This document shows positions 31,476 to 54,210 of a DNA stretch of 64,000 nucleotides, in pieces (within the stretch, counting starts at the first letter, position 1; every line of letters begins with the position of its first letter). This DNA is from an uncultured Alphaproteobacteria bacterium. Lineage in GTDB: Bacteria; Pseudomonadota; Alphaproteobacteria; Rs-D84. A program made the position numbers and the translations under genes. The notes under the pieces were generated by a model. The model saw nothing but the letters and a program-made list of their open reading frames with translations, made no database searches and was not told the DNA's origin. The stretch is taken from assembly GCA_944389185.1 (NCBI GenBank), contig CALXLL010000003.1, forward strand, positions 12,754 through 76,753. Reading direction: 5' to 3'.

Positions 31476-31552
31476 TGGTGGGTGGTATTGGACTCGAACC
31501 AACGACCTTTACGATGTCAACGTAACGCTCTAACCAGCTGAGCTAACCACCC
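31476..31552 (-). tRNA. tRNA-Val (anticodon GAC)
   Basis: The reverse complement GGGTGGTTAGCTCAGCTGGTTAGAGCGTTACGTTGACATCGTAAAGGTCGTTGGTTCGAGTCCAATACCACCCACCA forms a cloverleaf. Anticodon loop TTGACAT. CCA encoded. Confidence 0.88.
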
Positions 31553-31564
31553 AAAACTTAACGG

Positions 31565-31592
31565 ATTATACCAAAGAAAAATCAGATTGCAA
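31565..31592 (-). promoter_or_regulatory. sigma70-like promoter for tRNA-Val(GAC)
   Basis: The minus strand reads TTGCAA (31592-31587), 16-nt spacer, TATAAT (31570-31565), 12 nt before the tRNA 5' end. Confidence 0.55.
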
Positions 31593-31615
31593 TACTTAAA
31601 AAACTCTTTTATAAT
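31587..31615 (+). promoter_or_regulatory. sigma70-like promoter for the 31621-31800 RNA, sharing a palindromic -35 with the divergent tRNA promoter
   Basis: TTGCAA (31587-31592; the hexamer is its own reverse complement), 17-nt spacer, consensus TATAAT (31610-31615). Confidence 0.55.
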
Positions 31616-31620
31616 AATAA

Positions 31621-31800
31621 GCGCGACAGGGGTTCTGTCGCTGGGCATACAAACCTATTCAGCACGCGCCAGAGATGGCGGAAAATATCTCCAACCGATT
31701 TGGTTGGAGTGCACTGAATATATTGAATAAAGTGCGCAATTTCGTGTTGAATTGTTTGTAAGCTCCAACCACCTAAATATTTTTCGGTGGTTTTATTTTA
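31621..31800 (+). ncRNA. candidate structured RNA (unclassified sRNA or cis-regulatory leader of the downstream HTH gene)
   Basis: Bounded by the promoter above and the terminator AACCACC-12 nt-GGTGGTT plus a T-rich tail (31767-31800). Contains hairpins 31623-31641, 31667-31680, 31689-31709 and 31711-31735, and a long closing helix 31645-31666 with 31743-31763. No ORF is present. Confidence 0.5.
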
Positions 31801-31821
31801 TTGTTTGAAAGCGGGGCTGTT

Positions 31822-32019
31822 ATGAAGGTTGGACAAGAAATTGAATCTATAAGAAAAAAACTTGGTTTTTCCGTCGTGTTTATGTGTAACGTTTTTAATG
31901 TTTCTGAACCAGATTATTATAAAATAATTGCCGGTAAATACCGGTTAAATACATATCAATTAATTATGTTTATAGATGCAACTAAAACCCCACTTAAATC
32001 CATAGAAGAATATTTATAA
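31822..32019 (+). CDS. small XRE-family helix-turn-helix protein
   Basis: 65 aa from ATG 31822 (the ORF-track start at 31801 is a TTG inside the terminator tail). IRKKLGFSVVFMCNVFNVSEPDYYKIIAGK fits the HTH_XRE pattern. Confidence 0.55.
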   Translation: MKVGQEIESIRKKLGFSVVFMCNVFNVSEPDYYKIIAGKYRLNTYQLIMFIDATKTPLKSIEEYL

Positions 32020-32042
32020 AAAACCGGCTTTTGCCGGCTTTT

Positions 32043-53966: not shown

Positions 53967-54210
53967 TCCTATGTTTTATCGCGTTGATAAAATTGAACCG
54001 CCAAGAAAATCAAGGCGGCAGGAGGTTGGAAACAATATCAAAGAATTGTGTCGTTTATTTTTTATATTCACGACCCCCCTGCCTGTTATGACAGAGGTAG
54101 TTTTTCGTCGTTTTCAGACGCTTTGATAAAGGGTTTCCACACCCCGATGCTAAAACTCTTAGCATCGCCGTAATTATATAAAAGTATTTTTTATATATCT
54201 ATTAAAATAT

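Follow-up and report, generated by a model that had tools for sequence, protein, structure and literature searches.

What is made from the short stretch that lies between a tRNA-Val(GAC) gene (31476-31552) and a small helix-turn-helix (HTH) gene in the genome of an uncultured alphaproteobacterium of the order Rs-D84, and does the product act by itself or on the gene that follows? The locus is part of a DNA stretch of 64,000 nucleotides (nt), called the window in the following (GenBank assembly GCA_944389185.1, contig CALXLL010000003.1, positions 12,754 to 76,753 of the forward strand), and a preliminary description of its letters had flagged positions 31587-31821 as a promoter-to-terminator unit with switch-like alternative pairings. 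The flagged stretch is a real ~180-nt folded RNA (31621-31800 on the plus strand) with its own promoter and intrinsic terminator. It belongs to a large family of terminator-switch leader RNAs that has no public description. As argued below, it is probably a cis-acting transcription attenuator that is off by default, promoter and leader together forming the cassette of this multicopy family.

A consensus scan finds the promoter TTGCAA-17-TATAAT as claimed, along with the -35 element shared with the divergent promoter of tRNA-Val(GAC). The latter reads on the minus strand from the same hexamer through a 16-nt spacer to a TG-extended TATAAT. The palindromic TTGCAA is thus common to both promoters within 31565-31615, so that the two RNA polymerase binding sites overlap back to back. 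Transcription of the leader would start at about 31621-31623, and from promoter to terminator the architecture is, 5' to 3', promoter, P0, P1 5' strand, J1/2 (ACC plus a variable segment 'a'), P2, an A-rich J2/3, P3, P4, P5, P1 3' strand, terminator and U tract, with the following parts:

31587-31615 (+): sigma-70-type promoter, TTGCAA at 31587-31592, 17-nt spacer, TATAAT at 31610-31615
31623-31641 (+): P0, the 5'-terminal hairpin GCGACAG-GGGTT-CTGTCGC, from sequence and fold
31643-31654 (+): P1 5' strand GGGCATACAAAC, partner 31755-31765, its outer GGG pairing with CTC of the distal CTCCAACC
31658-31666 (+): 3' segment 'a' of J1/2, TTCAGCACG, partner the P5 loop at 31743-31751 (pseudoknot, or P1b)
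31667-31680 (+): P2, hairpin CGCC-AGAGAT-GGCG, double changes in 5 of 5 pairs
31689-31709 (+): P3, the anti-antiterminator hairpin, made of C1 (CTCCAACC, 31689-31696) and G2 (GGTTGGAG, 31702-31709)
31702-31710 (+): 5' strand GGTTGGAGT of the alternative antiterminator helix, partner 31762-31770, supported by covariation
31711-31735 (+): P4, stem GCACT/AGTGC that covaries, with the nearly invariant loop GAATATATTGAATAA (31716-31730)
31737-31754 (+): P5, hairpin CAATT, loop TCGTGTTG, AATTG, supported by covariation and recovered by RNAalifold
31755-31765 (+): P1 3' strand TTTGTAAGCTC, supported by per-copy duplexes and covariation
31762-31770 (+): distal copy C2, GCTCCAACC, of which CTC closes P1 and AACC opens the terminator, the whole segment pairing with G2 in the alternative fold
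31767-31800 (+): intrinsic terminator AACCACC-loop-GGTGGTT (stem 31767-31792, double changes in 4 of 6 pairs) with the tail TTTTATTTT

In RNA letters, C1 reads CUCCAACC, G2 reads GGUUGGAG and the P4 loop reads GAAUAUAUUGAAUAA; the P1 3' strand ends in the CUC of the second CUCCAACC (C2), which in the DNA is the second CTCCAACC at 31763-31770.

The 180-nt transcript folds at -75.9 kcal/mol, compared with -44.1 +/- 4.5 kcal/mol for its dinucleotide shuffles (z = -7.07), and an equally good fold was obtained in 0 of 200 shuffles. The 5' hairpin, the three inner hairpins (CGCC/GGCG, CTCCAACC/GGTTGGAG and GCACT/AGTGC), the terminator and the ATG of the HTH gene all lie where the preliminary description had placed them, and its picture of a self-contained structured RNA running from promoter to terminator is borne out by this fold, by covariation and by the existence of family copies. 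The 'roughly 20-bp closing helix' had to be redrawn: the pairing exists, but it consists of two elements, P1 and a pairing of J1/2 with the P5 loop, because segment 'a' matches the P5 loop ('c') in a copy-specific manner, and P5 itself (CAATT/AATTG) had been missed.

When the window was searched with Rfam 15, tRNAs alone were returned at gathering thresholds, and nothing was matched within 31621-31800 (+) even at E <= 10; literature searches with motif strings and for Rs-D84 RNA motifs gave nothing relevant. A covariance model of 154 positions and 39 pairs (R1) was built from 16 hand-anchored copies, the P1 5' strand being anchored by hand since plain MAFFT followed by RNAalifold misaligned P1. 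R1 matches 8 copies in this 0.8-Mb genome (~37% GC, Candidatus Enterousia-like, order Rs-D84) and is matched in 223 of 251 sampled genomes and 20 of 26 genera of the order, as well as in 15 of ~398 other alphaproteobacterial genomes of 1.1-2.5 Mb; in two genomes of ~1 Mb, for which all candidates were scored, 52 and 59 copies were counted. By BLASTN, several copies are present in 21 of the first 25 same-genus genomes searched, and a pattern scan restricted to one genome per species yielded at least 119 loci, nearly all in gut or rumen metagenome-assembled genomes labelled Candidatus Enterousia, uncultured Alphaproteobacteria or 'Rickettsiales bacterium'. A good promoter match was obtained for 119 family copies, and most of these have a TATAAT-like -10 element at a constant distance of 26-28 nt 5' of P1. 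The stretch with the element also occurs in chicken-gut metagenome runs, and Enterousia has been placed among the genome-reduced fermenters of the order Rs-D84 (PMC12306168). The earlier failure to match the RNA to known classes holds in that cmscan returns no Rfam family at threshold, and has to be qualified in that distant family members give sub-threshold matches to sRNA-Xcc1.

The comparison among relatives shows that the helices of the default fold covary. Among 109 copies aligned to R1, 90.5% of cells are paired, versus 77.6% in shuffles and 34-50% when partners are slid; compensatory cells number 549, versus 150 in shuffles and 30-81 in the slid controls; and double changes are found in 30 of the 39 pairs, observed values that 0 of 500 shuffles attain. 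The P1 duplexes differ in sequence in almost every copy while their complementarity is kept (double changes in 8 of 11 pairs), P3 has 95.9% of its cells paired, with C1, G2 and the distal copy changing together in variant classes, and P5 alternates between CAAUU/AAUUG and CUAUU/AAUAG (pair 211-242: U-A 68, A-U 35, C-G 3). The 24 nt 5' of P1, which correspond to P0, fold at -5 kcal/mol or below in 89% of copies and in 15% of shuffles, although their sequence is variable. Some paralogues, namely the C5 and C10 copies of this genome, have an expanded P2. The P4 stem of distant members encloses an inner hairpin, around which it has a symmetric GAAUAA/GAAUAA internal loop; the conserved P4 loop of the Enterousia form is this internal loop in collapsed form. 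A conserved G.U pair is seen in 95 of the 109 copies, and the structure is therefore strand-specific, that is, kept at the RNA level.

These data bear on the idea that the element is a mobile or selfish repeat (a miniature inverted-repeat transposable element, a repeat like the repetitive extragenic palindromic (REP) sequences, or the leader end of a mobile gene cassette), with an RNA structure that is incidental or serves to insulate or stabilize transcripts. A copy number of 52-59 per Mb, the association with accessory genes (XRE regulators, a DNA methylase, GmrSD), the description of the related sRNA-Xcc1 as integron-cassette-borne and the paralogous duplications of leader plus gene in this genome are what such a repeat would be expected to show. 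However, the copies are divergent, P1, P2, P4 and the pseudoknot differ almost everywhere and yet pair (141 distinct P5 loop sequences among 164 copies), the G.U pair makes the structure strand-specific, orientation and spacing relative to promoter and gene are fixed, and no terminal inverted repeats were noticed, so that a repeat of this kind is regarded as quite improbable.

The central claim of the preliminary description was a switch, in which G2 (GGTTGGAG) can pair with either copy of CTCCAACC, the second pairing destroying the terminator stem. This is supported by covariation that is specific to the alternative helix. G2:C2 comprises 9 bp, formed by GGUUGGAGK of the P3 3' arm with the second CUCCAACC, and its cells are paired in 99.3% (alignment A4) and 96.1% (alignment A5) of cases, percentages that are somewhat inflated since both alignments were fitted to the model. 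Its ninth pair, which lies outside P3, covaries (G-C 78, U-A 18, U-G 7). At least 8 contiguous pairs are possible in 94% of copies for G2:C2 and in 63% for P3, and variant G2 arms form a mean run of 8.4 pairs with their own C2 versus 5.4 with the consensus C2. Concerted C1/G2/C2 classes are found already within this genome, where there are three (CTCCAACC/GGTTGGAG/CTCCAACC, CTCCTGTC/GGCAGGAG/CTCCTGCC and CTCCTGA/GTCAGGAG/CTCCTGACC), and further ones (AGCC, CCCCCAACC, TTCCTAT) occur in other genomes. Overall, the concerted classes are CTCCAACC, CTCCAGCC, CTCCTGCC, CTCCTGACC, CCCCCAACC and CTTCCTAT, to which the distant members add CATCCGCCC, CTTCCGGTC, CTTCCCGAC and CTCCACC, with the G2/C2 pairs GGGCGGAUG/CAUCCGCCC, GACCGGAAG/CUUCCGGUC, GUCGGGAAG/CUUCCCGAC and GGUGGAG/CUCCACC. 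Since G2:C2 takes up both the P1-closing CUC and the AACC with which the terminator starts, it cannot coexist with P3, with the base of P1 or with the terminator; in the window copy, the best fold with G2:C2 forced has -55.4 kcal/mol, versus -75.9 for the minimum free energy (MFE) fold, and P4 and P5 are nested inside the helix as a three-way junction.

With P3, the G2:C2 helix and the terminator, the segments have the topology 1:2 / 2:3 / 3:4, and this matches exactly that of a trp-type attenuator, in which a ribosome translating a leader peptide would cover C1. In the window copy, a frame of 28 codons even starts from an ATG within the P2 loop. Across the copies, however, there is no conserved leader open reading frame (ORF), which supports the earlier description of a transcript without one: ATG-initiated frames cross C1 in just 15-19% of copies, are spread equally over the three frames and share no conserved peptide or stop, and the length of J2/3 varies by non-multiples of three. 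Leader-peptide attenuation is effectively refuted by this lack of a conserved translated ORF over C1, and a trp-type mechanism is hardly conceivable here.

A second switch had been proposed for ATTCAGCAC, which was thought to pair either distally or proximally. The distal partner, the P5 loop, stands, since contiguous complementarity of at least 6 between 'a' and the P5 loop is found in 66% of cognate versus 2.9% of non-cognate pairs. The proximal partner does not: no covariation was seen, and the pairing of J1/2 with the P4 arm was rejected, cognate and non-cognate combinations being equal. Fully paired loops of 6-7 nt are known from kissing complexes. P5 and the J1/2:P5-loop pairing were also considered as the two sides of a second obligatory switch, for which, given this precedent, steric exclusion is not compelling; they may coexist as a pseudoknot.

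Both sets of helices are thus maintained by compensatory change, and two mutually exclusive folds are found together with a conserved domain that overlaps the terminator platform. Our reading of the element as an attenuator can be put as follows. Transcription would start ~7 nt after TATAAT, and the protective 5' hairpin P0 would form first. By default the RNA would enter a locked state A, in which the 5' half is paired with the 3' half at three places, namely through P1 (including its 5'-GGG with the distal CUC), through J1/2 with the P5 loop and through C1 with G2 (P3). This state would leave the AACCACC/GGUGGUU terminator free, so that polymerase would stop at ~31800 and release an RNA of ~180 nt. 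In state B, G2 (GGUUGGAGU) would instead pair with the distal GCUCCAACC and close the three-way junction with P4 and P5, using up 4 nt of the terminator 5' arm and the base of P1, with read-through into the gene 22 nt downstream as the consequence. The helices would accordingly follow each other in the order anti-antiterminator (P3), antiterminator (G2:C2) and terminator. Some factor would be expected to favour state B, the likeliest being a protein or other macromolecule that either binds the junction module (the antiterminator helix plus the GAAUAA/GAAUAA loop of P4), as antiterminator proteins bind ribonucleic antiterminator (RAT) elements, or captures the conserved C/A-rich 5' half before P3 forms. 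The terminated RNA may, in addition, have a function of its own.

That the element acts in cis is indicated by what follows it. In all 8 copies of this genome a start codon on the same strand lies within 20-30 nt after the element, in most of them with a purine-rich run resembling a Shine-Dalgarno sequence just before it. Among 153 usable copies of the family, 133 are followed by a co-oriented ORF of at least 40 amino acids (aa) that starts no more than 60 nt from the tail, with the mode at +19 to +26, and 5 by another copy; of the remaining 15, most have a co-oriented gene after inserted palindromic repeats and about 5 face a convergent gene. A co-oriented ORF or a further copy is therefore next in ~90% of copies, and the spacing between leader and gene leaves no room for a separate promoter of the latter.

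The rival that has to be weighed most carefully against attenuation is a family of primarily free-standing small RNA (sRNA) genes, in which the terminated ~180-nt RNA would be the product, either a protein sponge that displays the GAAUAA/GAAUAA loop or a base-pairing RNA, and read-through would be secondary. The unit has its own promoter, a 5' hairpin that would be stabilizing and a strong terminator, and one invariant exposed loop is common to all copies. In Bartonella henselae, moreover, the Brt RNAs are among the most abundant transcripts, and the trp genes downstream of them are barely transcribed (PMC5387305). Such an RNA has little use, on the other hand, for a gene or further copy starting in the same orientation 10-35 nt after the tail, with no promoter space in between, as seen in ~90% of copies, and if it acted purely in trans, the stronger selection on the antiterminator helix than on P3 would make no sense. 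In this genome tblastn returned no Hfq, ProQ or CsrA, and no other genomic site with a complementary motif suggests a target: a search of the genome for a trans RNA with GGUUGGAG, GGCAGGAG or GUCAGGAG gave scattered matches in coding regions and nothing suggestive. On this evidence a primarily free-standing role is considered possible, though somewhat unlikely.

Several observations nevertheless weigh against attenuation. Complete promoter-RNA-terminator units stand in tandem, uninterrupted by ORFs, as a row of four in one genome (G042), and arrays of this kind are fitted better by an RNA product with a role of its own than by a pure leader. The control for the criterion 'ORF within 60 nt' is poor, since 57% of random positions satisfy it; being uninformative, it leaves the cis argument to rest on orientation and on the tight spacing of the start codons. 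State B is ~20 kcal/mol weaker than state A and is never the MFE fold, even for a transcript truncated before the 3' arm of the terminator, so that read-through would need help. No effector emerged from the searches. Besides the fitting of A4 and A5 mentioned above, the loci L023-L141 were picked by a pattern containing GGTTGGAG, which hides G2 variation in that set. Finally, the expression evidence in favour of read-through is weak: a 194-nt contig of one metatranscriptomic run covers 31639-31831 with no mismatches and one single-base insertion and crosses the terminator, and a second contig of the same run lies over the HTH gene. The crossing is compatible with read-through, but the run covers the genome just in sparse patches of 200-300 nt, because of which carry-over of DNA is a possible source of the contigs. 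Across the public expression runs contigs are sparse, with nothing at the second family copy of the window (53989-54145); a related copy is contained in a size-fractionated run.

What could turn an attenuator of this type on? Rho, NusA, NusG and one Csp are present in this genome by tblastn, and a macromolecular activator is favoured because the default state is very stable and the strongest conservation lies in C1, G2, C2 and the P4 loop. The same two properties argue against a small-molecule riboswitch, in which a metabolite or second messenger bound by the junction (with the ACC of J1/2, the A-rich J2/3 and the internal loop of P4) would tip the balance of the folds: the default fold needs no ligand to be very stable, and the most conserved sequence sits in helices rather than in a pocket. 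In favour of a riboswitch, the multi-helix junction is complex and pseudoknotted, has unpaired nucleotides that are conserved, and is overlapped by a terminator platform; c-di-GMP riboswitches, too, are found in front of surface-protein genes, many per genome. Yet no Rfam riboswitch is matched even at E <= 10, the regulon is not metabolic, and tblastn of the 97%-complete genome, a weak negative, returned no GGDEF, EAL, HD-GYP, DAC or RelA/SpoT. A ligand-binding riboswitch is accordingly taken to be improbable.

The closest structural parallel is sRNA-Xcc1 (RF02221), an ~88-nt RNA first described in an integron cassette of Xanthomonas campestris. Like the module formed by the antiterminator helix, P4 and P5, it is a three-way junction with a 9-bp G-rich/C-rich closing helix. 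Its first hairpin has an AAUA...GAAUAA internal loop around a short inner hairpin, a second hairpin and a linker follow, and 'ACC...UUU' comes after the closing helix, in one-to-one correspondence with the module. Full-length (1-87) alignments to RF02221 were obtained in 8 of 13 chosen genomes at 26-41 bits, below the gathering score of 53; the best scores of family members are 41.4, 38.3 and 37.4 bits. The matches are nested inside R1 matches, on G2-P4-P5-C2, in G028, G362, G522 (two copies) and G612, whereas no match was obtained in the genome of the window (G000), nor, even at E <= 10, in the window region. In the reverse direction, the core model R2 ranks an Xcc1-like element of the Bartonella grahamii plasmid pBGR3 (49.5 bits with RF02221) first and in register, at just 12.3 bits and E = 0.3. 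On the strength of the sub-threshold alignments, the module of state B corresponds to sRNA-Xcc1 helix for helix, and the junction can therefore be argued to be a fold in its own right. There are differences, since P4 no longer has its inner hairpin in the Enterousia form, and the family, unlike sRNA-Xcc1, has a separate, overlapping terminator and an extra 5' half of ~70 nt (P0, P1 5' strand, pseudoknot strand, P2 and C1) able to lock the junction; sRNA-Xcc1, for its part, is annotated as a trans-acting sRNA of unknown mechanism. It is plausible, though not established, that the family is a derived, 'locked' and terminator-coupled relative of sRNA-Xcc1-type RNAs. The pBGR3 element (locus L199, 25880-25967 on the minus strand) lies right after a TATAAT and 41 nt before a gene for a YdcK beta-solenoid-repeat protein, and Xcc1-type RNAs are thus also 5' leaders in that plasmid.

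The second parallel is functional. The Brt RNAs of Bartonella have 194-203 nt and their own promoter, number 9-34 per genome and each precede a small, poorly transcribed XRE (trp) gene (Tu et al. 2016, PMC5387305); they were reported to be genus-specific and linked to trp genes alone, and their authors proposed a terminator riboswitch that also acts in trans, with Brt1 having a dual function (PMC5387305). The present family resembles these Brt/Trp modules as a multicopy alphaproteobacterial structured RNA of ~200 nt with its own promoter, placed in many copies directly before a small XRE HTH gene, and it differs from them in that most of its downstream genes encode secreted or surface proteins. 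Brt has been implicated in the control of an adhesin gene, and to our knowledge no structure model or covariation has been published for it. On pBGR3, a structured leader of ~195 nt (L199, 26496-26690 on the plus strand; z = -5.5) precedes an HTH (HTH_3) gene and is presumably the plasmid's Brt copy; by eye, it shows the arrangement of the present family, with GGGAG...CUCCC as the closing helix, UCCCGG/CCGGGA as the hairpin and CUCCCGG as the distal repeat. R1 gives this leader, the sole presumed Brt-type leader compared, 8.3 bits, which is noise level, and RF02221 has no match on it. The family would thus appear to be functionally analogous to the Brt/Trp modules, and the common architecture suggests, by analogy, what the conserved 3' domain of sRNA-Xcc1 and Brt does.

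Mutually exclusive anti-antiterminator, antiterminator and terminator helices are also familiar from the PyrR-controlled pyr leaders, the RAT elements of BglG/SacY, T-boxes and trp-type leaders, and T-boxes occur in many copies per genome. The family shares with these three-hairpin attenuators termination by default and conserved sequence within the antiterminator module. In contrast to them, it has no leader peptide and no Rfam match to T-box, PyrR or other leaders, its regulon consists of accessory and surface genes rather than of one pathway, and its antiterminator closes a three-way junction rather than a simple hairpin. A T-box leader was considered separately and rejected, with no RF00230 match at E <= 10 and downstream genes that are not aminoacyl-tRNA synthetase or amino-acid genes.

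Poultry, ruminants and people harbour Candidatus Enterousia and its relatives, widespread gut bacteria with reduced genomes that are uncultured and the gene regulation of which is little known. One RNA device before dozens of accessory genes would amount to a regulon-scale layer of RNA control, in a genome where neither Hfq, CsrA and ProQ nor common nucleotide second-messenger enzymes were found (tblastn). Carried further, and as a tentative suggestion that may well prove wrong, the element could be the main gene-control device of these tiny-genome gut Alphaproteobacteria: a riboswitch-like class with an sRNA-Xcc1-type junction and a tripartite 'lock' in cis, sensing one signal (protein, RNA or ligand) and switching on up to ~5% of genes, while the terminated RNAs double as a pool acting in trans. 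If this were true, ~5% of the genes, that is, the secreted and surface proteome and a set of XRE regulators, would be switched in concert, and a first mechanistic model would be at hand for the Bartonella Brt and Xanthomonas Xcc1 RNAs, two poorly understood RNAs that the model links. Mutational and biochemical tests are straightforward because the two-state model derived from covariation is explicit and every helix of both states is supported.

The genes next to the element in the window are the following:

31822-32019 (+): gene for a 65-aa XRE-fold HTH protein, ATG at 31822, 22 nt after the terminator
32024-32037: bidirectional terminator after the HTH gene

A purine-rich GCGGGG a few nt 5' of the ATG at 31822 is a possible Shine-Dalgarno sequence. 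That the 65-aa product is an XRE-type protein, as had been proposed, is borne out by structure prediction: AlphaFold2 gives a mean predicted local distance difference test (pLDDT) score of 91.7, and the top Foldseek matches are DdrO, C.BclI, SinR and ClgR, with template modelling (TM) scores of 0.75-0.81. The fold search was needed because an HTH family profile gave nothing significant against the PDB sequences; the protein has no Pfam match either. An HTH gene is not a constant partner of the element, being just one of many kinds of downstream gene. When 129 downstream products were compared with Pfam, HTH_31 (14 members), HTH_19 (13) and HTH_3 (10) were found beside Flg_new repeats (7), Cys-rich Ephrin_rec_like domains (3), GT2 glycosyltransferases, ABC transporters and Gly_rich proteins (2 each), a DNA methylase and GmrSD (1 each); most products are without a Pfam match, and many of those inspected start with a signal peptide.

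Another member of the family is found in the window itself:

53989-54145 (-): second family copy, of the CTCCTGCC class, R1 match G000:C3:66742-66898(-) at 93.5 bits

It lies upstream of genes for Cys-rich secreted proteins that interrupt the rpsO-pnp junction, and thus accounts for the transcription of the cassette inserted there. Elsewhere in the same genome, at C5:39064-50428 and C10:10610-10769, there are four paralogous units of leader plus signal-peptide gene (MRKLFAGLLLG...), with an expanded P2 and of the CTCCTGACC class, the sequences of which point to a recent joint duplication of leader and gene. Unit duplication is likewise suggested at L182 (G042:C1, ~71010-71892), where four promoter-leader-terminator units stand in tandem at ~240-nt spacing before one small HTH gene, by the remnant of a ribosome-binding site in each spacer. 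At L091, L081 and L123, a conserved hairpin-like element, TGGAATCTG(Y)CC...ATCTCCACA...GGG(Y)AGATTCC(A/T)CC, which may be a further small structured RNA or repeat, occurs no more than ~80 nt after the leader terminator, and at L070, L032 and L072, REP-like GC-rich palindromes, such as GTCATCCTGAGCGAACGCAAGTTCGCGTGAGGATCC and GTCATTCCGGCGAAAGCCGGAATCC, lie between leader and gene.

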